A DNA stretch of 32,000 nucleotides from Candidatus Saccharimonadota bacterium (GTDB lineage: Bacteria > Patescibacteriota > Saccharimonadia > Saccharimonadales > Saccharimonadaceae), in assembly GCA_023898645.1 (NCBI GenBank), contig CP060232.1:660001-692000 (forward strand), read 5' to 3'. Below are positions 10,615-31,413 of this stretch, one piece after another. The notes under the pieces are model-generated. The model was not told where the DNA came from. It saw only the letters and a program-made list of their open reading frames with translations, and ran no database searches. How positions within the stretch are numbered: position 1 is the first letter of the stretch; every line of letters begins with the position of its first letter. The translations under genes and the position numbers were made by a program.

Positions 10615-10659
10615 ATTAACATAAAGTCATACTCGGTGACTCGTACACAAGGAGTGAAG

Positions 10660-10809
10660 ATGGCTATTCGCGTAGAATGCCAAGACTGCACCTGGTTTGC
10701 CAGCAGCAGCCCTACCAATCCCTCAAGTTACGTCAAATTTGCAGCAAACGGGCACAGCAAAGCCTACAACCATACGTATGTCGTTTACGGTAGCGAAGAG
10801 GAAGAGTAG
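10660..10809 (+). CDS. Small (49 aa) Cys2/His2-containing acidic-tailed protein, hypothetical
   Basis: Sequence is MAIRVECQDCTWFASSSPTNPSSYVKFAANGHSKAYNHTYVVYGSEEEE. AAGGAG lies 5-6 nt before the ATG. It has its own promoter (10587-10614) and a clean terminator (10847-10875). It is below the track cutoff. Confidence 0.5.
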   Translation: MAIRVECQDCTWFASSSPTNPSSYVKFAANGHSKAYNHTYVVYGSEEEE

Positions 10810-21318: not shown

Positions 21319-21657
21319 CTATTTGGCTGCCGCAGCGGTCAGTTGTTCCCGTAGCGTCGACTCCGGTACCATGCCGATGATGTTGTCGACTTGTTTGCCG
21401 GCCTTGTACACTATCATGTTTGGGATGCTCTGCACTCCATGCTCCCCGGCAAGCGCGTTGTTGTCGGCAGACTCTTCAATGTTAACTTTTACCACATCTG
21501 TAGTGTCGTCGAGTTTATCTGCTAGTGAAATCAACGCCGGTGACATCGCACGGCATGGCGGGCACCAAGCAGCCCAAAAATCTACCAGTACGACTTTGTC
21601 GCTCTTTAGTACCTTCTCTTCAAATTCCTGTTTGGTCGTTGTGTTATATAAAGCCAT
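21319..21657 (-). CDS. trxA: Thioredoxin with a WCPPC active site
   Basis: 112 aa with thioredoxin-fold hallmarks: VLVDFWAAWCPPCR, VKVNIEE, IPNMIVYKAGK. TATACT lies 6 nt upstream of the ATG on the minus strand, with no RBS. Confidence 0.92.
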   Translation of the reverse strand: MALYNTTTKQEFEEKVLKSDKVVLVDFWAAWCPPCRAMSPALISLADKLDDTTDVVKVNIEESADNNALAGEHGVQSIPNMIVYKAGKQVDNIIGMVPESTLREQLTAAAAK

Positions 21658-21736
21658 ATACTTAGTATAGCGTATTTGCGCCGGCTGATTGCGGAGGTTG
21701 GTGACTATGCGTAAAATCGGAGTTTTCTTATCTGTT

Positions 21737-21751
21737 CAGGGTTAGACCCTG
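21737..21751. repeat. REP-like hairpin
   Basis: cagggt-tag-accctg. It abuts the 5' edge of 147-bp repeat copy A and is related to the AGGGTTAAACCCC motif family. Confidence 0.6.
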
Positions 21752-21752
21752 A

Positions 21753-21899
21753 ATCCATTCGCGCGAAGTCGAAGGGTGACATCTGCAGACACCGGAAAGT
21801 CGGGTGGCGGCGGGCAGTCATGAACCGAGGACTGTTTGAACCCGACAGTAGCGCCTGACGGCGTGAGTTTCGCAGGTTCTGATTGCTTGACGTCGCATG
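21753..21899 (+). repeat. 147-bp direct repeat, copy A (variant copy of the candidate RNA element)
   Basis: Identical to 23806-23952 except A at 21858 versus T at 23911. It is bracketed by REP-like hairpins at 21737-21751 and 21903-21918. Confidence 0.9.
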
Positions 21900-21902
21900 A
21901 GC

Positions 21903-22635
21903 TAAGGGTTAAACCCCAAGAAGTAAGAAATTATTGTATAGTTATCTTCCGTACAATTCCCGTTTGATACTGTCACGCTCGCGTTGCTCGTCTTCATAAT
22001 CTGACACAAACTCTTCGTAGACAGCACTAGATGAGAATAGTCCAAGAATCGATTTCGCATCAATCCAATCTCGGCAAATACCCATATAATCCTGATAGCT
22101 GCTATGCTCCCATGTCCTGTATTTCGAATGATTTAGGTGAATATACCGAGTAATATGCATCAGCTGAATATCATTCTCAATCCATACGGCCTTATAAGTT
22201 GATTCAAACAGCGAGCCGCGGCGCTTGTGTCGTTTATTGAAATATGCAGTATAGGCCGTGATGAGACTGGTCATAAAACGCGTGATGGCCGATTCATCGT
22301 CATATTGATAAAACAGCATATGGAAATGATTACCCATCAGACAATAAGCGATTAGATGAACGTCCGGGTAGAAGTGCTTAAACAATCTTCCGGTGTCGTC
22401 TTTGCCTTGCTCGGGCGACAAGTGGCGGGCGAGTAGATTCTCGAAATAATAACGATCCGCGTCGTCGATGAATATGTTACCCAGATTCCATCCACGGTTA
22501 TACACGTGATAATACGAGTTCGGAACAAACACCTTCACGACGTTTTTTGTTGGCATAAGTATACTATATACTAATTTACACCTTTTCGGGGTTTAACCCT
22601 TAAATCTTCGGGGTTTAACCCTTAAATCCCTTAAA
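21903..22635 (-). mobile_element. RAYT-type transposase unit: gene flanked by inverted REP-like motifs
   Basis: taagggttaaacccca (21903-21918) lies on one side. Two tandem inverted copies cggggtttaacccttaaat (22586-22604 and 22608-22626, 22-bp period) plus a partial copy lie on the other side of ORF 21942-22556. Confidence 0.6.
21942..22556 (-). CDS. REP-associated tyrosine transposase-like HUH (Y1, IS200-like) protein
   Basis: 204 aa. HUH motif is NHFHMLF and the catalytic-Tyr helix is ITRYIHLNH. Its size and the flanking palindromic motifs fit a RAYT rather than a canonical IS200 TnpA. There is no tnpB. Confidence 0.8.
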   Translation of the reverse strand: MPTKNVVKVFVPNSYYHVYNRGWNLGNIFIDDADRYYFENLLARHLSPEQGKDDTGRLFKHFYPDVHLIAYCLMGNHFHMLFYQYDDESAITRFMTSLITAYTAYFNKRHKRRGSLFESTYKAVWIENDIQLMHITRYIHLNHSKYRTWEHSSYQDYMGICRDWIDAKSILGLFSSSAVYEEFVSDYEDEQRERDSIKRELYGR

Positions 22636-22685
22636 TCCAGTAACTTTGATGGCGCAAAATCCCATTTTAAACAAATAACACCTGC

Positions 22686-22701
22686 AAGGGGTGAACCCTG
22701 G
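22686..22701. repeat. Degenerate REP-like motif
   Basis: aaggggtgaaccctgg. Its reverse complement ccagggttcacccctt resembles cagggttagaccctg. Confidence 0.4.
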
Positions 22702-22732
22702 AGCACACAACTCGTGATATTTCACGCATATG

Positions 22733-23269
22733 TTAATTGGGGGAAATAAACCTTACGATCATAATGGGATCAACGGGCCAAGAGGAAAGACTTATCATCA
22801 TTGCGATGGTTACTATCGCCACGACGCTTAGGAGGATTCCAATGATTCCCATCGCGTCATAAGAGTTAATCGAAGCTGCGATATTTGGGTGCTGATTATT
22901 ATAGCTATAGCCCCTTTGAGATAAATATACACACGCCGTAACGATACTAATAGCAGCGAAAACGCCCCCCAGCACAGCAAAACTAAATATGAAGCCAAGA
23001 ATACCCAAGACTAAAGTAGCAACAGAAAGACGCCGCATATTCAATGAAATCGAAGTCTTATCACCATGCGACATACCGCCATTTACCATTCTACGTCTTG
23101 ACTCAATGTATAGCGCAGCAACTAAACCCATTGTAATCACATTACCCGTATTCGCGCGCGGGTCAAGGACTAGACCCAGCAAGCACAAAAGACCAAGTAT
23201 AGATAGCCCAACAATGGTTCGTACGTTGAAAATTTTTTGTTTATTTTCTGGTTGCATCTTGCTATCCAT
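22733..23269 (-). CDS. Hypothetical polytopic membrane protein
   Basis: 178 aa with 4-5 hydrophobic helices. One is a small-residue-rich helix, GILGFIFSFAVLGGVFAAISIV. Confidence 0.55.
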   Translation of the reverse strand: MDSKMQPENKQKIFNVRTIVGLSILGLLCLLGLVLDPRANTGNVITMGLVAALYIESRRRMVNGGMSHGDKTSISLNMRRLSVATLVLGILGFIFSFAVLGGVFAAISIVTACVYLSQRGYSYNNQHPNIAASINSYDAMGIIGILLSVVAIVTIAMMISLSSWPVDPIMIVRFISPN

Positions 23270-23383
23270 CCTAATTTATCAATAAATAATATCAACGATA
23301 GTAGCACGTCGGTGTTAACCGGTATACACGCGTAGGTTACTCAGGGTTATAGGGCCAGGCCTGTAGATCGTCTGAAATTTAAT

Positions 23384-23408
23384 AGGGCGAGTCGCTTGGA
23401 CTCGCCCT
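23384..23408 (-). terminator. Hairpin 6 nt downstream of the stop of gene 23414-23653
   Basis: Stem agggcgagtc / gactcgccct (10 bp), loop gcttg. The trailing T-run on the minus strand (tattaaattt) is weak. Confidence 0.5.
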
Positions 23409-23413
23409 TGTCG

Positions 23414-23653
23414 TCAGGACTTTTTTGCACCCAGACGCTTGGACTTGTTGGTAGCCAGCAGGTACACAATTGGTACGAAACCAAACGTGTTGGTCGCAAG
23501 AATGACGATAAACCATCCGACTTCGTGCCGCACACTAGCAGCGCGCCACAGCGCCAAGCCCTTCCAGGTAAGATCCCAGATGACCACAACGAGGATTGCG
23601 AACCTCATCCATACGGAAAGACTGTCCAGATTACTTGCCCATGTCGTAAACAT
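23414..23653 (-). CDS. Small (79 aa) two-helix membrane protein
   Basis: I moved the start to the ATG at 23653, 8 nt after AAGGAG. The track GTG at 23662 is part of that RBS. The sequence has Trp-rich helices: MRFAILVVVIWDLTWKGLALW and GWFIVILATNTFGFVPIVYLL. Confidence 0.6.
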   Translation of the reverse strand: MFTTWASNLDSLSVWMRFAILVVVIWDLTWKGLALWRAASVRHEVGWFIVILATNTFGFVPIVYLLATNKSKRLGAKKS

Positions 23654-23805
23654 TGCCACCACTCCTTTTTATGATACTCATTGGCAAAATTATAATAGCA
23701 CGTAAAATATCGCTTTACACGGAATAACACGTACGAGTGATGAGCCTTGAGACCGTAAAAACAATCGTTTTATTATTTGGCTTTTAACACTGGTAATAAA
23801 ATATT

Positions 23806-23952
23806 ATCCATTCGCGCGAAGTCGAAGGGTGACATCTGCAGACACCGGAAAGTCGGGTGGCGGCGGGCAGTCATGAACCGAGGACTGTTTGAACCCGACA
23901 GTAGCGCCTGTCGGCGTGAGTTTCGCAGGTTCTGATTGCTTGACGTCGCATG
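23806..23952 (+). ncRNA. Candidate unclassified structured small RNA (147-bp repeat, copy B)
   Basis: A GC-rich island in AT-rich intergenic DNA. Helices: GTCGGG 23852-23857 / CCCGAC 23894-23899, CAGTC 23868-23872 / GACTG 23883-23887, CCGACAG 23895-23901 / CTGTCGG 23908-23914. The 5' and 3' ends can also pair (CCAT/ATGG, GCGA/TCGC, GTC/GAC). A plus-strand terminator follows. I recognised no known RNA family. Confidence 0.35.
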
Positions 23953-23957
23953 GCTTT

Positions 23958-23988
23958 ACCGCGTGGCGAAGCCGTCACGAGGTTTTTT
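23958..23988 (+). terminator. Hairpin plus T-run 5 nt after repeat copy B
   Basis: accgcgtg ... cacgaggt pairs at 7 of 8 positions. There is an inner GC-GAA-GC hairpin, then tttttt (23983-23988). A second AT-rich palindrome follows at about 23993-24018. Confidence 0.5.
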
Positions 23989-24055
23989 GCTTCGTTTTTT
24001 GCCGGCACAAAAAATGAAGGCGTTTTGGTACTTACGCAAAAAAGTACTAGAGTTA

Positions 24056-24083
24056 TTGACATTTCCCACTCCTTTGCTATACT
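24056..24083 (+). promoter_or_regulatory. Strong sigma70-like promoter of the rplJL operon
   Basis: TTGACA - 16 nt - TATACT, with TGc immediately upstream of the -10 (extended -10). Confidence 0.7.
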
Positions 24084-24089
24084 TCATAC

Positions 24090-24297
24090 AGCATTACACC
24101 AAAGACCGTAGCTGTCGCAAGACTTAATTCGCTACCGAGGCGTAAAACTACCACCATTGTTTTATCCACCCGAAAGGTCTTTGATTACAACTGCGAGTAT
24201 CAAAGACCTTCTTTTATTCTCAAAGTTGCAAGGACCTAACGGTGTAATGAATACCTTAACAACTCGGATCGAAAAATAATTAACCAAGGAGAATCTT
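24090..24297 (+). promoter_or_regulatory. rplJ 5' leader (L10-leader-like) with an attenuator hairpin at 24174-24218
   Basis: The UTR is about 200 nt. It contains a GTAGC...GCTAC helix enclosing a GTC-GCAA-GAC GNRA hairpin. A 12-bp stem aaggtctttgat / atcaaagacctt follows, then cttttatt. The RBS AAGGAG lies at 24286-24291. Confidence 0.55.
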
Positions 24298-24822
24298 ATG
24301 GCGATTTCAAAATCGAAAAAGAACGAATTGGTTGCTGAAGTTTCAGAATCTCTAGCGACGTCAAAGCTAACAGTTTTCGCAAAGTATGACGGCCTAAGTG
24401 TTGCAGACATGCAAGCACTTCGCGGTCAGGCTCGCGAAGCTGGCGTAACGATCAAGGTGGTCAAAAACCGCTTGGTCCGCGTAGCAATGAGCGCAAACGA
24501 TACGTACAAAAACACCGATACCGCCCTTCTAACTGGTCAATTGCTTTACGCAATGAGCAGCGAAGACGAGATCGCTCCTGCAAAAGTACTCGACGGCTTT
24601 GCCAAGACCAACCCGGCCTTGCAGTTCGTCGGTGCATTTGGCATGGAAGGTGAACTCATGGACGCAGCCGAAGTCACTGCTCTTGCTAGCTTGCCTAGCA
24701 AAAACGAGCTTGTTGGCCAAGTTGTATCTATGTTGCTATCACCAGTTAACGACGTCACAAACGCGCTTTCTGGCAACCTACACGCCCTATTGGACGGCGT
24801 AGAAGCCAAGGCTACTGCTTAA
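24298..24822 (+). CDS. rplJ: 50S ribosomal protein L10
   Basis: 174 aa. The N-terminal KSKKNELVAEV...LTVFAKYDGLSVADMQALRGQAREAGVTIKVVKNRL is typical of L10, and it lies immediately upstream of rplL. Confidence 0.95.
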   Translation: MAISKSKKNELVAEVSESLATSKLTVFAKYDGLSVADMQALRGQAREAGVTIKVVKNRLVRVAMSANDTYKNTDTALLTGQLLYAMSSEDEIAPAKVLDGFAKTNPALQFVGAFGMEGELMDAAEVTALASLPSKNELVGQVVSMLLSPVNDVTNALSGNLHALLDGVEAKATA

Positions 24823-24867
24823 CTTCAAGCAACCTACAATTAACTGAATTATAAAGGAGTCATAATC

Positions 24868-25245
24868 ATGGCTGATGTAAAGAAACTTGCTGAAGAACTG
24901 ACAAAATTGACAGTTCTCGAAGTAAACGAACTAAAAACTGTCCTTAAGGACGAATACGGCATCGAGCCTGCAGCTGCTGCTGTAGCTGTTGCTGCTGGCC
25001 CTGCTGCTGCAGCTGGTCCTGCCGAAGACGAAAAGAGCGAATACACTGTGAAACTAGCTGACGCTGGTGCGCAGAAAGTTGCTGTTATCAAGGCTGTTAA
25101 AGAAATCACTGGTCTTGGACTTGGTGAAGCTAAAGCTATCGTCGACAACGCTCCTAGCAACGTAGTTGAAAAGGTAAGCAAAGACGACGCTGACAACGCT
25201 AAGAAACTTCTTGAAGAAGCTGGCGCTTCTGTCGAACTCGTTTAA
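24868..25245 (+). CDS. rplL: 50S ribosomal protein L7/L12
   Basis: 125 aa. N-terminal dimerisation helix, Ala/Pro hinge ([18 protein letters not shown]), and C-terminal domain [34 protein letters not shown]. Confidence 0.96.
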
Positions 25246-25290
25246 TCGAGCCGACAGTTCACCAAAATCATTCGATCCGATTGTTATACG

Positions 25291-25324
25291 AAAACCGCTC
25301 CAACTCGGGGCGGTTTTCATTTTA
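25291..25324 (+). terminator. Rho-independent terminator after rplL
   Basis: Stem aaaaccgc / gcggtttt with a 10-11 nt loop, followed by ttttcatttt. Confidence 0.7.
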
Positions 25325-25340
25325 GACAAAGCACGTTACA

Positions 25341-25468
25341 ATGGAGCAAATGAGTAGCGTTTTCAGCATCATTGTGAGCCTCGTCCTCGTGCCATCGCAT
25401 GGCGCCGGTTGCTCATACCAATAGACAGTTAAACGACAACGAGCACCCGGCCACAAGCCGGGGTTTTT
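25341..25468 (+). promoter_or_regulatory. ilvBN leader: branched-chain-amino-acid-rich leader peptide plus antiterminator/terminator switch
   Basis: Leader ORF 25341-25424 (or from the ATG at 25350, 3 nt after GGAG) encodes [27 protein letters not shown]. Antiterminator: 25404-25414 pairs with 25441-25451 at 10 of 11 positions. Terminator: cccggc 25446-25451 / gccggg 25457-25462, then g + ttttt. The two pairings share 25446-25451. Confidence 0.7.
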
Positions 25469-25494
25469 CGTCAGAGAGGGTAGTAACAAATATC

Positions 25495-27198
25495 ATGACA
25501 GGCGCGGAAGCACTGATAAAGAGCCTCGAGCGATTGGGCGTCGAGTATATATTTGGCTATTCCGGCGGGGCTGCCATACCCATATTTGACGCAATCGTCA
25601 CCACCAAAACCAACATCAAGCTCATAGCCACCCGTCACGAACAAGGCGCCGCCCACATGGCCGACGGCTACGCACGCGCCAGCGGCAAACCGGGCGTTGT
25701 ACTGGTAACCAGCGGCCCCGGAGTTGGCAATATCATCACCGGGCTAATGACCGCGCACATGGACAGCGTGCCGATAATCATCATCAGCGGCCAGCAAATC
25801 ACGCCGATGCTCGGCCTGGACGCGTTTCAAGAAGCGGATACATTTAACCTGAGTATGCCAGTGGTCAAACACAACTACCTAGTGCTCAAAACCAACGATG
25901 TGCCTAGCGTGGTACACGAAGCATTTGAAATCGCATCGACCGGCAGGCCGGGGCCGGTGCTGATAGACATGCCAAAAGACGTCAGCTCCGGAAAATTTAC
26001 CGGCAAACTAACCGACGCTGCACCACTCGTGCGTAAAGAAGAAACAGCACAGTACAAAAAAGACGCCCAAAAAGTCGCAAAACTTATAGCAAACGCCAAG
26101 CGCCCTGTCGTACTGGCTGGTCACGGCGTGTTGATAGCTGGCGCCGAAGACGAGCTGTTAAAGGTAGCGACTCAGTTTGACATGCCTGTCACCACTACGC
26201 TTTTAGGCAAGGGCGCAATCGACGAAACGTACGAATTGTCGCTCGGCATGCTCGGTATGCACGGTACCGGTTACGCCAACAAAGCAATTGAAGAGTCGGA
26301 TCTCATAATAAACATCGGTTCGCGATTTGACGACCGGATAGTGGGCGATGTAGAAAGCTTCACGGCAAACACAACCATAGTGCACGTGGACGTAGACGAA
26401 GCCGAGCTAGGCAAAATGGTGATGCCGGACGTTGCCATACTAGCAGACGCAAAAGATTTCTTTAGTGCGCTACTCGCTACCAAGCAGGCGGCTACTCACG
26501 ACAAGTGGCACAAGCATCTGCAAACATACAAAGAGCAAATGCCACTAAGCTACGACGATAGCGACGGCCTGACCCAGCAGCACGTTATAGACGAAGCCAT
26601 GAAACAAACGAAAGGCGAGGCGATTGTAACCACGGACGTAGGCCAGCACCAAATGTGGGCTGCGCAGTTTTACCGCGTAAAGCACGCCAACCACTGGATC
26701 AGCTCTGGCGGAGCAGGCACTATGGGCTTTGGATTCCCAAGTGCACTTGGCGCACAATTTGCCGAACCAAAAAAGCAGGTGCTGACAATCGTGGGCGATG
26801 GCGGATTCCAAATGACACTGTACGAACTAGCAACGGCGGCGCTACATAAACTACCCGTAAAGATATTTGTGATGAACAATCACTACCTAGGCATGGTGCG
26901 CCAATGGCAAGAACTTTTTTATGACGAGCGCCTGAGCGGCGTCGACCTAGAAGGCAACCCGGACTTTGTAAAACTAGCCGAAAGCTACGGCGTAAAGGCA
27001 ATCAACATAGAGCAACCCGACGAAGTGGAGGCCAAGGTAGCCGAAGCACTCGCGTACAACGACGGCCCCGTGCTAATCAACTGCGAAGTTGCCAAGACGC
27101 ACAACGTCTACCCGATGATCCCAGCAGGCAGCGGCTATTCACATATGTTGCTCGGTCCGCCGACTACCAAACTAGAAGCACCAAAGGGGAGTACGTAA
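25495..27198 (+). CDS. ilvB: Acetolactate synthase (acetohydroxyacid synthase) large catalytic subunit, ThDP/FAD-dependent
   Basis: The 567 aa counted from the ATG at 25495 ([26 protein letters not shown]) give the typical AHAS N-terminus. ThDP motif is [15 protein letters not shown]...NN, and HGTGYANKA and RFDDR motifs are present. The track start at 25399 would run through the attenuator. Confidence 0.92.
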
Positions 27199-27199
27199 G

Positions 27200-27457
27200 A
27201 TGAAAAAAGATAGCGACCACACATACGTATTGACCCTGACCGTCCGCAACAATGCCGGCGTCTTGGTGCGTTGCGCGCAGATATTTAATCGGCGCGGGCA
27301 CAACATCGAGGCATTGCACGTTGCCGGTTCACCCGACTCGCCAAACTTGTCGCTCATGACAATTACGGCATTTGGCAAACCAGACGTGATCAAACTAATT
27401 ACACTGCAATTAAAAAAACTTGTAGACGTCGTAGACGTAAAAGAGTCCGAAAACTAA
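27200..27457 (+). CDS. ilvN: Acetolactate synthase small regulatory subunit (ACT domain only, short form)
   Basis: 85 aa. HTYVLTLTVRNNAGVLVRCAQIFNRRGHNIEAL is the canonical AHAS small-subunit ACT domain. It starts 1 nt after the ilvB stop. Confidence 0.85.
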   Translation: MKKDSDHTYVLTLTVRNNAGVLVRCAQIFNRRGHNIEALHVAGSPDSPNLSLMTITAFGKPDVIKLITLQLKKLVDVVDVKESEN

Positions 27458-27473
27458 CCAGACGTTTTTGGCT

Positions 27474-27518
27474 AAAAAATATGCCCGATTTTCCGTGGTA
27501 GTCACAGAAAATCGGGCA
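27474..27518 (-). terminator. Terminator of minus-strand gene 27524-28078, possibly bidirectional
   Basis: 12-bp stem tgcccgattttc / gaaaatcgggca. On the minus strand it is followed by atatttttt. Confidence 0.7.
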
Positions 27519-27523
27519 CGTAG

Positions 27524-28078
27524 CTACTTGGCAGTAGCGAGCCTCAGTGCGAGCTGAGCCGCCGAAACGGTACTTGTAAACGCCACGTATACACGGCCGT
27601 AGGTCGAATACTGACGCTTTTTGAAAACCGTGCGGCCGTTCTTGACCTCGGCTGCGTTGAAGCCAATCGCTACGGCACTGGTAATCGTAGACGTCGCGTC
27701 GACCTGCTCGTTATGCTCGGTAGCAAGTAGCGACTGGCCGTTTTCGGCTCGTCGCGTAAGCTCCATGCCGGCGGCATACAGGCTGACGCCCGCCATAGCA
27801 AGGCTGATCACATAACCGAAGTTGTCGCGAAACGTCAACGACTGGCTGTCTTTATACAGCAAGTTTCGTTGCCGAAGCAGCGTATTTGAAATGTGCAACG
27901 CACGGAACACACTCGCAACGGCATCGATAGTCAGGCTCAGCCCAGACTTTTCCTGCGTTGATTGCTTCATGTTGTCACGGAACTCTTGCAGCGAGAACTC
28001 GCGATAATTAACTCGCCCCATGTAAGAAGCTACCTCTCTATATGTACGTCTCGCGCTGTGCGAAATCTTATATACCAT
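27524..28078 (-). CDS. Hypothetical protein
   Basis: 184-aa ORF with a good terminator. It has one central hydrophobic segment (GYVISLAMAGVSLYAAG). I recognise no motif. Confidence 0.5.
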   Translation of the reverse strand: MVYKISHSARRTYREVASYMGRVNYREFSLQEFRDNMKQSTQEKSGLSLTIDAVASVFRALHISNTLLRQRNLLYKDSQSLTFRDNFGYVISLAMAGVSLYAAGMELTRRAENGQSLLATEHNEQVDATSTITSAVAIGFNAAEVKNGRTVFKKRQYSTYGRVYVAFTSTVSAAQLALRLATAK

Positions 28079-28172
28079 ACCATTTTTGTATACATGCTAC
28101 AACAAACGCCACGTTGGCCTCTCAAGAAAAAACCGCCCAAATTTAAGTAGTAGTTCAGGGTATAATGAACTC

Positions 28173-28802
28173 ATGAAGTCAAAAGACAGGGTCGTTATAT
28201 TTGGCGCCGCCGGCAAAGTCGGCAGCTTGCTAGTAGAGTACGCTCTGGCAGATGGTTACGCGGTGACGGCGTTCGTGCACCGTCATCATAATTTACCTAG
28301 TCATCCGAATTTAATAATTGCTAAGGGTGATGTGTATGACAAGTCCGAAGTACAAAAGGCGCTGCAAGACGCAGACGTAGTACTCAGTGCGCTCAGTAGC
28401 TGGGGCACACCGAAAAAAGACGTGCTGTCTGCCGCTATGGCGACCATCGTACCTACTATGAAAGAGCGAGGAATCGACAGGATTATATCGCTCACTGGTT
28501 CTGAGGCTAGGGCATCGGGCGACCGCCTAAGCATCATTCATAGGCTTGCGCACATAGGAATCGGCGTCGTAGGCGGCAAAGTACTCCGCGACGGCGAACG
28601 CCACATTAAATTGCTAGAACAAAGCGGGCTTGACTGGACCGTCGTACGATCACCAATTATGCGGTCGGGTTCGTCGCGACGATATACGTTGTCCTCAAAC
28701 CGGCCGTTGCCATGGGGTATCATTAACCGCCAAGCCGTAGCGCGGGCAATGGTCGACCAAATAGACACACCGCACAGGCCCAAGGCCGTATTTATACATT
28801 AG
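28173..28802 (+). CDS. NAD(P)-binding Rossmann-fold protein (NmrA/atypical SDR-like)
   Basis: I moved the start to the ATG at 28173, so the glycine-rich loop VVIFGAAGKVGS sits at the N-terminus as expected. TATAAT (28161-28166) lies 6 nt upstream, with no RBS. Confidence 0.75.
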   Translation: MKSKDRVVIFGAAGKVGSLLVEYALADGYAVTAFVHRHHNLPSHPNLIIAKGDVYDKSEVQKALQDADVVLSALSSWGTPKKDVLSAAMATIVPTMKERGIDRIISLTGSEARASGDRLSIIHRLAHIGIGVVGGKVLRDGERHIKLLEQSGLDWTVVRSPIMRSGSSRRYTLSSNRPLPWGIINRQAVARAMVDQIDTPHRPKAVFIH

Positions 28803-28830
28803 TCATTGCTTTTCGAATAAGTATCGACAA

Positions 28831-29292
28831 CTACATAGGGCCCGCGCCGTACGTGCCCGGCTTGGGCGTTCCTTGCGGCGGTTGCTCGTCGCCTGGAAGC
28901 AAAGGATTTCTAGAACCTAATAAAACGTCTATAAATTTGCGTGACGATTTAGGAAACCCGTAATCGTTGGGGCCCTGGGTGCCAGGAGCAAACAGCAGAA
29001 TGAGAAAGGTCACTAAATTGACGACTGGAACGAAGTGTAACAAAGCCAGCCAGCCAGTCTTGTTCATATCATGCCAGCGTCGAATAATCATGCCGAGTGA
29101 CGCTACTATGTTAAATGCACTCCACACGGCGCCAAAGAGGAAGAAAACAATATTTATCATAGAATGAATCGCGCCAGAATCATGTATAGCGATGATTGAA
29201 ATCACATATAAAATGATAGCGACCAGCATAGGAACGCCGAGGTATAAATTTCCTAATACGAAACCAGTTCGATTGAGTCTGCCTTTAAACAT
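28831..29292 (-). CDS. DUF805 (YhaH-like) inner-membrane protein with a Pro-rich C-terminal tail
   Basis: GRLNRTGFVLGNL...RRWHDMNKTGWLALL matches the DUF805 signature. I moved the start to the ATG at 29292 (MFKGRLNR). Confidence 0.7.
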   Translation of the reverse strand: MFKGRLNRTGFVLGNLYLGVPMLVAIILYVISIIAIHDSGAIHSMINIVFFLFGAVWSAFNIVASLGMIIRRWHDMNKTGWLALLHFVPVVNLVTFLILLFAPGTQGPNDYGFPKSSRKFIDVLLGSRNPLLPGDEQPPQGTPKPGTYGAGPM

Positions 29293-29401
29293 AACCGCAG
29301 TATAGCACAATGGCGCCTAGACGCTGACGCACTTTATGAATGTGGTAATGTTTCTATTTTATGGTATAGCATATTTTTGACAGGGGGAGTACAATCGAAT
29401 T

Positions 29402-29950
29402 ATGAAATCAATGGAGTTTTCAAGCTTTGCAAACGCAGAAAATGCGTGGACATACGACACGCCGTACGACCTGGCACGTAGACGAGAGATCTTAGAAAAT
29501 GACGGACGAGACAGCCGTCGATTTCAAGATATGGAAAACTATATAGACTACGTAAATAACAATATGCCCGACGACTACATGGTAGCAACGACCGTCGTTA
29601 AGCTAATCGAATACGATCCATATTCGACCCGCGTCAAGCCACCAACTAAACTAGCGTGGCTTTACCGACCCGACGAAAATGGCGTATTCACTCAATATAA
29701 ATGCGTTTCCAATCTGGCGAGCTTCGTAGGCGACAAACTCGATCTACAAGATGATGACGTATACGTAGTAAATACTCAGTACAACGTCGCAATTCAACCC
29801 AAGCCGAACAAAAGTGTCGATATGATAAACATAGTTCAAGGAGTAGGCGACAATAGCGGTCACAAGGCACTGAACAACTTCGAAAAAAAGGTTACCGACG
29901 TTCTGGGAAGCTACTCGTTGTCGAGTTATCAGCTTACGCGCAATTACTAG
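29402..29950 (+). CDS. Hypothetical protein
   Basis: 182-aa ORF. GGGGGAG lies about 12 nt upstream. I recognise no motif. Confidence 0.5.
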   Translation: MKSMEFSSFANAENAWTYDTPYDLARRREILENDGRDSRRFQDMENYIDYVNNNMPDDYMVATTVVKLIEYDPYSTRVKPPTKLAWLYRPDENGVFTQYKCVSNLASFVGDKLDLQDDDVYVVNTQYNVAIQPKPNKSVDMINIVQGVGDNSGHKALNNFEKKVTDVLGSYSLSSYQLTRNY

Positions 29951-30080
29951 CACGTCCTGCGATGGCATTTTTCATGACAGCGAGGGTATAGTTGACGCCA
30001 ATGAGCGCGCCCGAGAATTCTGGAAGCAAGAAATACGAAAGAACGTGGACGTACAACACGCCATATACACCATTCGTAGA

Positions 30081-30109
30081 TTGCTTTTTTGTTACATTTA
30101 TGCCATAAT
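30081..30109 (+). promoter_or_regulatory. Sigma70-like promoter
   Basis: TTGCTT - 17 nt - CATAAT, upstream of AGGAG (30151-30155) and the TTG start at 30162. Confidence 0.55.
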
Positions 30110-30161
30110 TTAGTTAGCCACAAAAGTGGTCGTAGCTTACACAAATAGGTAGGAGTGATTC

Positions 30162-30668
30162 TTGTCTAGTAACCAAGACTTCGTCTTGAAAATGCCGCCG
30201 AACCCAATGGTTCAGCGTATGTACATCGATCTGCCCGGGTTACAACCGTTTGTCATACCGTCACACACGGTTGCCGGCATCTTGTGGCTCGACAAAGCCA
30301 TGGGCATAGCAGACGATTGCGACTACGTGCTCGTCAGCCAGTCGCTTGCCGGTTGGCTAATGGTAGAGTGCGACGTGCTCGATCCGGCCATACAGGTTAC
30401 TCGAATGCTAGCAATGCTCGACGAAGGAATCAACGAGAAATCAACAGAAGATTTCATCGAGCTCATCTCAAACCCGTTCGCGATTCGCTTTTCAGACGAC
30501 GACTCCGTACCAAGCAATATACGTGGCGAAATCGTCTCGATTGCGGTCATGAAAGAGTCAGACATGGAAAACGAATATGCCGACAGCATCTTTGCTGTCA
30601 GCATGCACGCCGACGATTCATTCGTCGGCCCTACGCCAGCGTTCCAGCACGCCATGCAGGAGCCCTAG
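30162..30668 (+). CDS. Hypothetical acidic protein
   Basis: 168 aa. TTG start lies 6 nt after AGGAG. The overlapping Arg-rich frame 30284-30736 was rejected. Confidence 0.55.
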   Translation: MSSNQDFVLKMPPNPMVQRMYIDLPGLQPFVIPSHTVAGILWLDKAMGIADDCDYVLVSQSLAGWLMVECDVLDPAIQVTRMLAMLDEGINEKSTEDFIELISNPFAIRFSDDDSVPSNIRGEIVSIAVMKESDMENEYADSIFAVSMHADDSFVGPTPAFQHAMQEP

Positions 30669-30825
30669 GCACTACAACACCCGCATACTTTTATAACAGG
30701 TATGCGGGTTTTATATTGCAGACAAAAGGCTATTAATTTGCCTAATGAAAAAGTTTATTCCGTCGTTTCTACAACAATTTTTAAGTTTAAACTGTTATGG
30801 CTGTGGACAAAAATGAGCGAATAGA

Positions 30826-30854
30826 TTGACAGTGTTTGTATTGCCTGATATATA
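30826..30854 (+). promoter_or_regulatory. Strong sigma70-like promoter
   Basis: TTGACA - 17 nt - TATATA, with TGa just upstream (extended -10). The track start codon at 30826 is the TTG of this -35 box. Confidence 0.65.
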
Positions 30855-30897
30855 TAGATATGATATCACCACAAAAAACAGACAAGGAACTGCGAGC

Positions 30898-31413
30898 ATG
30901 TCTGACCTACCAGAGAAACAAGTAAAGAGACTAACATCCCTCATCCAAGAGGCAGAGACAAACTTGGCAGCAGCCAAGGAACTTTTAATTAGCATTATCG
31001 GTGAGGGCGGCGTTGTCCTCACACCTAAATCAAGTCAAGAAGACGTCACCGGCAAGGTAATCGAAGGTGTCTTCGACGGCCAAGTTATGGTCGGCCCTGA
31101 CGGCAAAAACTACCCAGTACCTGCAAACTATGCCAGCAAGTCCAAACTACTAGAAGGTGACGTTCTAAAGCTAACCATCGCCGACGATGGCAGCTTCATC
31201 TATAAGCAAATTGGTCCAATCGAGCGAAAGCAAGTCATCGGCACACTAACGCAGCACGATGGCGCCTACTACGTAGAAGTAAGTGGCCGAGAGTACCGCA
31301 TACTGCTTGCTAGTGTTACTTTCTTCCGTCTCCACGAAGGCGACCAAGTCACAATTATCGTGCCAGAAGACAGCACAGACGCCACATGGGCTGCTGTTGA
31401 AGCACCGCTGTAG
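30898..31413 (+). CDS. Hypothetical protein (N-terminal coiled-coil-like helix plus beta-rich C-terminal part)
   Basis: I moved the start to the ATG at 30898 (MSDLPEKQVKRL...), 9 nt after AAGGA and downstream of the promoter at 30826-30854. Confidence 0.6.
   Translation: MSDLPEKQVKRLTSLIQEAETNLAAAKELLISIIGEGGVVLTPKSSQEDVTGKVIEGVFDGQVMVGPDGKNYPVPANYASKSKLLEGDVLKLTIADDGSFIYKQIGPIERKQVIGTLTQHDGAYYVEVSGREYRILLASVTFFRLHEGDQVTIIVPEDSTDATWAAVEAPL

Follow-up and report, generated by a model that had tools for sequence, protein, structure and literature searches.

In this study, we analysed a stretch of 32,000 nucleotides from a Candidatus Saccharimonadota bacterium (GenBank assembly GCA_023898645.1, contig CP060232.1, positions 660,001 to 692,000 of the forward strand; hereafter, the window), focusing on the interval between trxA and the rplJ/rplL genes. 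This interval carries a gene for a RAYT-like Y1/HUH nuclease set between inverted palindromes, two small membrane-protein genes and two direct repeats of 147 bp (copy A on the left, copy B on the right). The repeat is the 5' two-thirds of a structured small-RNA gene of ~190-230 nt on the plus strand; the gene is intact at copy B, and copy A, which lies between two palindromes, is most likely a non-functional fragment of it. We regard it as reasonably probable that the DNA broke at the palindromes and was repaired by copying from the RNA gene close by. The features of the locus are as follows, in window coordinates (ORF, open reading frame):

21319..21657, minus strand: trxA (thioredoxin), the left neighbour, outside the element; Pfam Thioredoxin E 5.8e-26; product identical to USN96115.1
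21735..21756, plus strand: degenerate palindrome unit TTCAGGGTTAGACCCTGAATCC at the left edge of copy A; 73% identity to the 22-nt unit at 22585
21753..21899, plus strand: copy A, small-RNA gene fragment; 146/147 identical to copy B
21903..21942, minus strand: 3' inverted end of the RAYT cassette, with the outer palindrome (21903-21917) and ~26 nt of inner arm including the stop codon; 40-nt inverted repeat
21942..22556, minus strand: gene for the RAYT-like Y1/HUH nuclease, 204 aa; Pfam Y1_Tnp E 1.3e-7
22563..22602, plus strand: 5' inverted end of the RAYT cassette, with the inner arm overlapping the likely RAYT promoter and the outer palindrome; 40-nt inverted repeat
22585..22638, plus strand: two tandem 22-nt palindrome units (22585-22606 and 22607-22628) and a partial third, CCTTAAATCC, a local stutter duplication
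22686..22700, plus strand: degenerate palindrome-like motif AAGGGGTGAACCCTG, of uncertain status; one mismatch to GGGTTNAACCC, fold no better than shuffles
22733..23269, minus strand: 178-aa membrane ORF; own promoter-like site at 23295-23268
23414..23662, minus strand: DUF5652 small membrane protein gene; Pfam DUF5652 E 1.1e-18; own terminator-like site at 23408-23384
23806..23952, plus strand: copy B, the repeated stretch within the intact small-RNA gene; runs on into the conserved 3' box and terminators
23826..24047, plus strand: intact structured small-RNA gene, one long irregular hairpin, as judged from fold, covariation and homologues; 5' end a candidate position
24056..24223, plus strand: rplJ promoter-like site (TTGACA-16-TATACT) and L10 leader (24081-24223), a separate transcription unit; RF00557 at 56.7 bits against a gathering score of 44

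The two repeat copies differ at one position only (A21858 versus T23911), and their similarity reaches 151 nt if a 1-nt indel is allowed. Palindromes bracket copy A within 1-3 nt and none is found at copy B; at the left edge, the last 4 nt (ATCC) of the unit at 21735-21756 are also the first nucleotides of copy A. In these respects our results uphold an initial annotation of this DNA, which had described a 147-bp repeat with one differing base, the bracketing of copy A alone, and a Y1/HUH gene with inverted flanking palindromes between trxA and rplJL (an arrangement of gene and palindromes that is conserved in relatives). An assembly artefact was rejected, since independent contigs reproduce the arrangement. 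Two ENA contigs (L100 and L101; L numbers denote the contigs and loci sampled) cover the window from 23801 to 21563 at 99.9-100% identity, including the whole of copy A and both of its flanks, and Logan contigs (k=31) from several runs end exactly 30 nt inside all four repeat edges (21782, 21870, 23835 and 23923), as is expected of a true two-copy repeat.

Two side observations concern these contigs. L100 and L101 belong to differently named assemblies, and both of their ends lie 1-2 nt apart (window 23799-23801 and 21563-21564); one of these ends falls 5 nt before copy B rather than k-1 nt inside it, and a common set of reads, or else a branch point between strain variants, may account for this. 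In addition, three contigs (L082-L084, from runs SRR28385526-28) encode the same L10 protein and show 48-49 differences from window 23923-30822 (98.5-99.3% identity), which indicates strain-level variation in the population; contigs of other runs are 100% identical to the window right of copy B.

We characterized the repeat as part of an RNA gene by its fold, its homologues and its covariation. The plus strand around copy B folds at -80.8 kcal/mol (z -3.07 against shuffles), compared with a z of -0.5 for the minus strand. Copy B is preceded by AT-rich, promoter-like sequence and directly followed by terminator-like hairpins (23962-24019), and the conserved 3' box of the intact gene reads TTTACCGCG...GAAGCCGTCACGAGG. 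When the RNA alone was used as a query, nhmmer recovered only L011; a covariance model recovered more, namely L092:3316-3480, L011:11903-12066 (minus strand), L011:12097-12281 (plus strand) and L014:12139-12328 (minus strand). The two copies in L011 are diverged and lie back to back right after dnaB, with their 5' ends 30 nt apart; the L092 copy is located between a membrane-protein gene and rlmH, and the L014 copy after an ABC-transporter permease gene. The neighbours thus change from genome to genome, which speaks against cis-regulation by the small RNA; we take the latter to be a free-standing gene and a candidate new family.

The homologues have in common the boxes UGUGACAUCUGCAGA, CGAGGACUGUUUGA, GAGUUYCGCAG and GAAGCCGUCACGAGGUUUU, followed by terminator hairpins. 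Overall, the family presents a conserved basal stem, the boxes CUGCAGA and CGAAGCC...GAGGUUU, and an apical domain that is variable or replaceable. The stems between the boxes vary among copies yet remain paired: RNAalifold found compensatory changes in 17 of 50 pairs across three MAFFT-aligned copies, and six model-aligned copies exhibited compensatory change in 31 of 49 pairs, with 91.4% of cells paired as compared with 33-49% in slid controls. None of 500 shuffles reached these six-copy values, which come from an alignment fitted to the covariance model, a fit that favours the model's own structure. In the most diverged member, even the basal stem is exchanged, GUGAC/GUCAC being replaced by GGGGU/ACCCC.

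A search of the window with Rfam 15 returned nothing over the small-RNA gene at E up to 10 (two chance-level matches, at E 0.76 and 4.6, sit in the 3' terminator region and beyond), and the relatives' small-RNA loci gave no match at E up to 5; the only RNA recognised in the window was the neighbouring L10 leader. Inspection led us to reject SRP RNA, 6S RNA, retron non-coding RNA, TnpB/IscB guide RNAs and riboswitches, whose hallmark motifs or partner genes are missing. Also rejected was the coding of an antisense peptide, KNLVTASPRGK, which is simply the translated conserved 3' box, in frames that differ among copies. A metagenome scan with the 19-nt 3' box yielded L092 as a good homologue, L094 as a partial one and L093 as a chance match, and a viral scan with the same box found nothing. 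A literature search on structured or non-coding RNAs in Saccharibacteria found nothing relevant among the top-ranked papers.

The partial match deserves mention in its own right. At L094:97-455 (minus strand), the 3' module of the RNA (GAAGCCGTCACGAGGTTTT plus two hairpins) follows wholly different upstream sequence, where the covariance model finds no match, and the 3' module may thus be a shared cassette that serves several RNAs. The non-coding RNAs of Saccharibacteria are nearly unexplored. This small RNA, which combines strong covariation with the lack of an Rfam family, is probably a more durable discovery than the duplication itself.

Compared with this gene, copy A is incomplete. Lacking the 3' closing strand, it reaches 61 bits against the RNA covariance model, where copy B reaches 149. 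It ends at ...GCATG, just short of the conserved 3' box, and has neither a terminator nor a recognisable promoter, a palindrome occupying the position where the promoter would be expected. Its one private base, A21858, breaks a pair of the apical hairpin, turning CGACAG/CUGUCG into CGACAG/CUGACG. Since the repeat is part of the RNA gene, and only copy B is accompanied by the 3' box and terminators, copy B is the original and copy A is derived from it. Copies A and B share 99.3% identity, but most of the variable stems are heavily diverged in the versions of this RNA gene found in other Saccharibacteria; the duplicate therefore arose within this lineage (or is being homogenised by gene conversion). 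On the reading that we favour, the 147-bp repeat is a by-product of local duplication, neither a target-site duplication nor a pair of attachment sites. A target-site duplication, which would measure 2-15 bp and stand just outside the element, was rejected on account of the repeat's 147 bp and of the position of one copy, 1.9 kb from the cassette and beyond two unrelated genes. The initial annotation had offered two interpretations, of which the capture and duplication of a host sequence fits such a lineage-specific duplicate better than an insertion carrying a spare copy of its target.

The lack of a recognisable promoter, together with a start within ~25 nt of the expected transcription start and a content of transcribed sequence only, would also suit a retro-copy: a complementary DNA of the small RNA, internally primed, run off at the RNA 5' end and inserted at a break between the palindromes. 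We give this account very little credence. The ORFs of 40 aa or more between 20000 and 26000 include no reverse transcriptase, the RNA 5' end is a candidate position only, the 3' limit of copy A is internal to the RNA with no obvious priming feature, and DNA-templated repair explains the microhomologies at the junctions (see below) equally well. Another system that would invoke a reverse transcriptase is a diversity-generating retroelement, with the copies as its template and variable repeats. Such elements are common in these bacteria, and two direct repeats of ~150 bp whose lone mismatch falls at an adenine of copy A recall them; however, no reverse transcriptase is encoded nearby, the copies are not located in the 3' end of any protein gene, a single one of the many adenines differs, and the sequence is a structured RNA gene with covariation. 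With neither a target gene nor a reverse transcriptase, we consider this possibility effectively refuted.

We then turn to the protein. The 204-aa product contains the motifs NHFH (residues 76-79) and RYIHLN (137-142), both invariant in 21 aligned homologues. It matches Pfam Y1_Tnp at 32 bits, above the cutoff, and the NCBIfam model NF047646 (REP_Tyr_transpos) at 30.3 bits over residues 66-145 only, where the cutoff is 80. Sequence and profile searches of the PDB gave no matches for it. At the level of predicted structure (AlphaFold AF2 model, pLDDT 91.6), the best PDB fold match is 4er8_A, the Escherichia coli RAYT-REP complex (E 7.4e-6 over 172 columns), with the ISDra2 and IS608 TnpA proteins ranking lower. 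More than 500 homologues of ~204 aa share 58-82% identity with the protein, all of Saccharibacteria-type source wherever the source is named, and the mean column identity in the alignment of 21 is 71%. Within the window the gene is single-copy, and this exact protein is recorded on one contig only. The modelled fold thus supports the earlier assignment of the protein to the RAYT type rather than to the IS200 TnpA proteins: it appears to be RAYT-like, at best a distant branch of the RAYT kind, and not an ordinary IS200 TnpA. A literature search found no paper linking RAYTs with Saccharibacteria.

The palindromes associated with this gene form a family that can be written as GGGKTNWRACCC. With up to one mismatch allowed, GGGTTNAACCC occurs five times in the 32 kb (at 21739, 21906, 22589, 22611 and 22688), and all five copies are at this locus, as the initial annotation had it; shuffled sequences contain 0.58 copies on average, and 0 of 100 reach five. 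The longer 15-mer GGGGTTTAACCCTTA flanks the RAYT gene in inverted orientation (21903-21917 on the minus strand, 22588-22602 on the plus strand). To extend the count we relied on sampled loci, the window amounting to 2.8% of the source genome. Across ~119 kb of RAYT-bearing loci, every palindrome copy lies within ~210 bp of a RAYT gene, and in ~900 kb of rplJ-region loci from 80 relatives there is one copy, at L011:357 (TAGGGTTTAACCCTA), with no RAYT within that 12.5-kb locus. A viral scan with the palindrome 15-mer gave 25 matches, at chance level and without a RAYT nearby. In the DNA sampled, then, the palindrome is local and not a classical dispersed REP (repetitive extragenic palindromic) sequence, so that the suggestion of a dispersed REP family did not hold there. 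Of the five copies, only the one at 21737 folds well, as an 8-bp DNA hairpin of -7.2 kcal/mol (z -4.4).

To define what travels with the RAYT gene, we compared its surroundings in eight relatives. The cassette sits in eight unrelated neighbourhoods (a tRNA and RHS-repeat gene, SHMT, ATP synthase, conjugation-type genes, a restriction system and others), and similarity between genomes stops a few bases outside the palindrome. Most relatives retain the layout of ~26 nt of inner arm and a palindrome on each side; upstream, the palindrome stands ~30 nt before the start codon and is followed by TATATAAT. Palindromes are present on both sides of the gene in L096, L098 (direct, not inverted), L099 and L134; in L095 and L132, the exact motif occurs downstream but not upstream. 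L133 has another palindrome, GGGGTCTGACC, on either side of its RAYT homologue (74% identity), as would be expected if protein and recognition site co-evolve. The mobile-looking unit is thus a ~0.7-kb cassette consisting of the RAYT gene and 40-bp imperfect inverted ends tipped by GGGGTTTAACCC; in the window, the two 40-nt arms (21903-21942 and 22563-22602) are 80% complementary. Two further observations were made on these cassettes: at L133:9860-10000 and 10616-10760, GGGGTCTGACC has been amplified together with the ~26-nt inner arm into local tandem arrays, and at L095:400-660, the RAYT homologue lies just downstream of an apparent tRNA 3' end (…GAGTTCGAGCCTCGCCCCCGGAGCCA), with an RHS-repeat protein gene after it.

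Neither the 178-aa ORF nor the DUF5652 gene is found beside the RAYT gene in any of the eight relatives, indicating that they are resident genes and not cargo. This, together with cassettes that end at the palindromes among different neighbours, contradicts the earlier proposal that the repeat frames an island with cargo genes. The 178-aa ORF is a lineage-specific orphan, with no family match at the curated cutoff and no cluster but its own among 5.8 billion proteins. The ancestral site was sought at both ends of the interval. In the rplJ loci of 80 relatives (L10 58-87% identical), no trxA, DUF5652 gene, 178-aa ORF, RAYT or RNA gene was found upstream of rplJ, and in the nearest trxA relatives (L103-L106; ~90% protein and 86% DNA identity), homology is lost 20 nt upstream of the start codon, where DUF4342 is found instead. 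No empty site was found because the trxA and rplJ neighbourhoods are not conserved in relatives.

These comparisons bear on the alternative that the whole segment is an integrated element: a 2,053-bp unit comprising the RAYT gene, both membrane genes and the 5' part of the RNA gene would have entered as a circle and recombined, by a homologous or site-specific route, with the chromosomal RNA gene; the 147-bp repeats would then be scars resembling attachment sites, and the membrane genes would be cargo. We find it highly unlikely, although the direct repeats do flank a segment and one of them restores an intact RNA gene, as at tRNA-targeting islands; the orphan ORF is also typical of accessory DNA, and the surroundings of rplJL vary among relatives. 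The de Bruijn topology, taken alone, would likewise fit a chromosome plus a 2-kb circle, but the contigs L100 and L101 run through copy A as far as trxA, which shows the integrated arrangement to be genuine. The ORFs encode no integrase, nor any recombinase other than the Y1 nuclease, and in the eight relatives the RAYT cassette travels alone, ending at its palindromes. Integration would predict an ancestral promoter upstream of copy A, yet a palindrome adjoins the repeat edge there, and it does not predict that both edges of copy A lie at palindromes. Furthermore, as the stems of the RNA evolve fast, an imported copy would be expected to differ from the resident one, contrary to the 99.3% identity observed.

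Each of the two junctions of copy A falls ~7 nt outside a palindrome. Read outward from the palindrome, with a slash at the junction, the left one is ACCC-TGAATCC/ATTCGCG and the right one, on the other strand, ACCC-TTAGCTC/ATGCGAC. Each shows microhomology: ATCC at the left, shared by the tail of the palindrome unit (TTAAATCC in the tandem units) and the RNA gene (TATTATCCATTCG), and GCT at the right. By a rough estimate, and given five palindromes per 32 kb, a segment chosen at random would have a palindrome within 7 nt of each end with a probability of ~5e-6.

Breaks at a similar distance recur elsewhere. In the window itself, the break comes after ACCCTTAAATC, and the tandem 22-nt units are succeeded by the partial repeat CCTTAAATCC. 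Downstream of the RAYT homologue in L099 (5616-5800), a 117-bp tandem duplication comprising the last ~70 bp of the coding region and the palindrome is followed by a 13-nt stutter, TAACCCTTGCTAC; L134 carries CCCTTATGA twice, and L133 has arrays of GGGGTCTGACCGTTTTATC that end in GTTTTATC. The local duplications of all four lineages (window, L099, L134 and L133) thus break 6-8 nt outside the palindrome, like the junctions of copy A, so that a palindrome-tied process repeatedly breaks DNA at this distance.

We propose the following course of events. A single-strand nick or break would have been made at the palindromes, and its repair would have copied the nearby RNA gene, by microhomology-primed template switching or by strand transfer. 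An internal RNA-gene piece of 147-151 bp would thereby have been placed between the palindrome at the RAYT 3' end and a second, degenerate palindrome. The intact RNA gene lies 1.9 kb right of the cassette, and its copied segment, when single-stranded, folds into a strong hairpin. As for the agent, HUH/Y1 enzymes of this fold (IS608, ISDra2, E. coli RAYT) cut single-stranded DNA at a fixed offset from a hairpin, and the E. coli RAYT cleaves next to REP hairpins. From this fixed-offset cleavage and from the recurrent breaks at 6-8 nt we infer, by analogy, that the RAYT probably made the break. The layout of the locus, the structure of the RNA, the direction in which it was copied and the recurring breakpoints are observed, and it is the RAYT catalysis and the route of repair that are inferred.

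The same junctions can be explained without the RAYT, by a replication error provoked by hairpins: the palindromes and the RNA-gene hairpin would stall the fork, a template switch at microhomology would follow, and the RAYT would be a mere neighbour. Microhomology at both junctions (ATCC and GCT), the strong single-stranded hairpin of the copied segment and the tandem stutters, which are classic slippage products, are all consistent with such an error. We nonetheless hold it to be unlikely, as the canonical palindrome is weak (-2.4 kcal/mol) and would be a poor fork barrier alone, and as a fixed break distance of 6-8 nt, with differing palindromes and in four lineages, suggests a positioned cut over generic slippage; moreover, the active site of the RAYT is intact and strongly conserved.

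Several points weigh against the proposed break and repair at the palindromes. A replication error without the RAYT would leave an identical scar. The catalytic part given to the RAYT, and with it the putative cleavage site, is drawn from related enzymes. The canonical palindrome is a weak DNA hairpin, with a 4-bp stem and a fold no better than that of shuffles, and the sequences preceding the two junctions differ (AATC versus GCTC), which gives no indication of one sequence-specific cleavage site. An older or foreign origin of copy A could be hidden by gene conversion between the copies. Finally, the event is a single one, in one lineage: no second palindrome-bracketed foreign sequence was found in the eight relatives, and no copy-free ancestral state in the rplJ and trxA loci of relatives, so that the order of events is deduced from anatomy.

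If palindrome-directed breakage and repair did take place, the locus makes a testable prediction, namely cleavage ~7 nt outside the palindrome (6-8 nt 3' of ACCC, with transfer to the start of CATTCGCG). How RAYTs act in cells, and how REP and REPIN populations originate, is poorly understood, and here a conserved RAYT-like nuclease of an ultra-small genome is accompanied by palindromes that multiply only locally and by one copy of host DNA placed at them. We know of no counterpart to a palindrome-bracketed fragment of a host small-RNA gene in the literature on RAYTs, REPINs or IS200. The locus also holds a lesson for annotation, in that a long direct repeat around a transposase need not mean a mobile island.

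A bolder reading goes further and treats copy A with its two palindromes as a nascent REPIN-like element, in which the RAYT joined two palindromes to a strongly hairpin-forming piece of a host RNA gene. We deem this distinctly unlikely, and note what it would entail. The palindrome-spacer-palindrome unit could be mobilised later. In addition, copy A lies in antisense orientation between the co-directional RAYT and trxA genes, and read-through from the RAYT promoter would therefore produce a 147-nt perfect antisense to the small RNA, tying expression of the RAYT to the level of the RNA. Independently of the RAYT, the small RNA would on this reading form a class of structured RNA new to Saccharibacteria, each genome carrying several paralogues.

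On the far side of copy B, rplJ and rplL follow the L10 leader. Further right, window 25399-30800 forms a stretch of ~5.6 kb between rplL and an ORF at 30826-31413, a gap that in most relatives measures ~0.1-3 kb. It encodes the large and small subunits of acetolactate synthase, an NmrA-like protein, a DUF805 protein and proteins without assignment. This stretch looks like an accessory insertion, which would place the rplJL operon within a variable region.

Among known systems, the closest is the E. coli RAYT (TnpA-REP, YafM; 4ER8). Like it, the protein described here is a single-domain HUH/Y1 nuclease encoded between inverted palindromes that it presumably recognises, and it is strongly conserved, in this case within Saccharibacteria-type homologues. 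Unlike it, the sequence identity between the two is only 12%, and the cassette occupies a different position in each relative. E. coli REPs are imperfect, ~35 nt long and carry a GTAG/CGTC tag, whereas the palindrome here is near-perfect and 12 nt long; E. coli has hundreds of dispersed REP copies, and no dispersed copies were found in the DNA sampled here.

The REPIN-RAYT systems of Pseudomonas (Bertels & Rainey 2011; Bertels et al. 2017) also have a RAYT flanked by palindromes, and the series palindrome-147 nt-palindrome formally resembles a REPIN doublet. A further likeness is that some genomes have two diverged RAYT paralogues, as is suggested by P0019 and P0084, apparently from one genome. 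REPINs, however, have short spacers and reach tens to hundreds of copies per genome, compared with one instance here, with a host RNA-gene spacer and no dispersal seen. RAYT genes are described as low in copy number and conserved in the manner of housekeeping genes, and abundant flanking 16-mers are a property of RAYT groups 2 and 3 only (Bertels et al. 2017, PMC5581495), with 57 and 140 occurrences, respectively, as compared with 12 and 14 in groups 1 and 4 (PMC5581495). The family described here is closer to the low-abundance groups 1 and 4.

The IS200/IS605 insertion sequences (IS608 and ISDra2 TnpA) share the Y1 HUH fold (ranks 2-17 among the fold matches), and they too act on single-stranded hairpins, cutting at a fixed distance. 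Their TnpA proteins measure ~130-155 aa, their subterminal hairpins are not inverted, they occur in multiple identical copies and they insert 3' of a tetra- or pentanucleotide; here, by contrast, the protein measures 204 aa and bears a helical extension at its C terminus, the ends are inverted over 40 bp, and the window holds no second copy of the gene.

Islands in tRNA, tmRNA or small-RNA genes offer a further likeness, as there too a portion of an RNA gene is directly repeated, once in the intact gene and once as a displaced fragment. They rely on a tyrosine or serine integrase and duplicate the part of the gene that serves as attachment site, whereas at this locus there is no integrase, the edges lie at palindromes and the enclosed genes do not travel. 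Lastly, IS91, ISCR and Helitrons likewise tie an HUH nuclease to the acquisition of adjacent host sequence. These elements employ a Y2 or Rep-helicase enzyme and capture contiguous sequence by reading through their terminator; here, the piece comes from 1.9 kb away and its donor gene is left intact.

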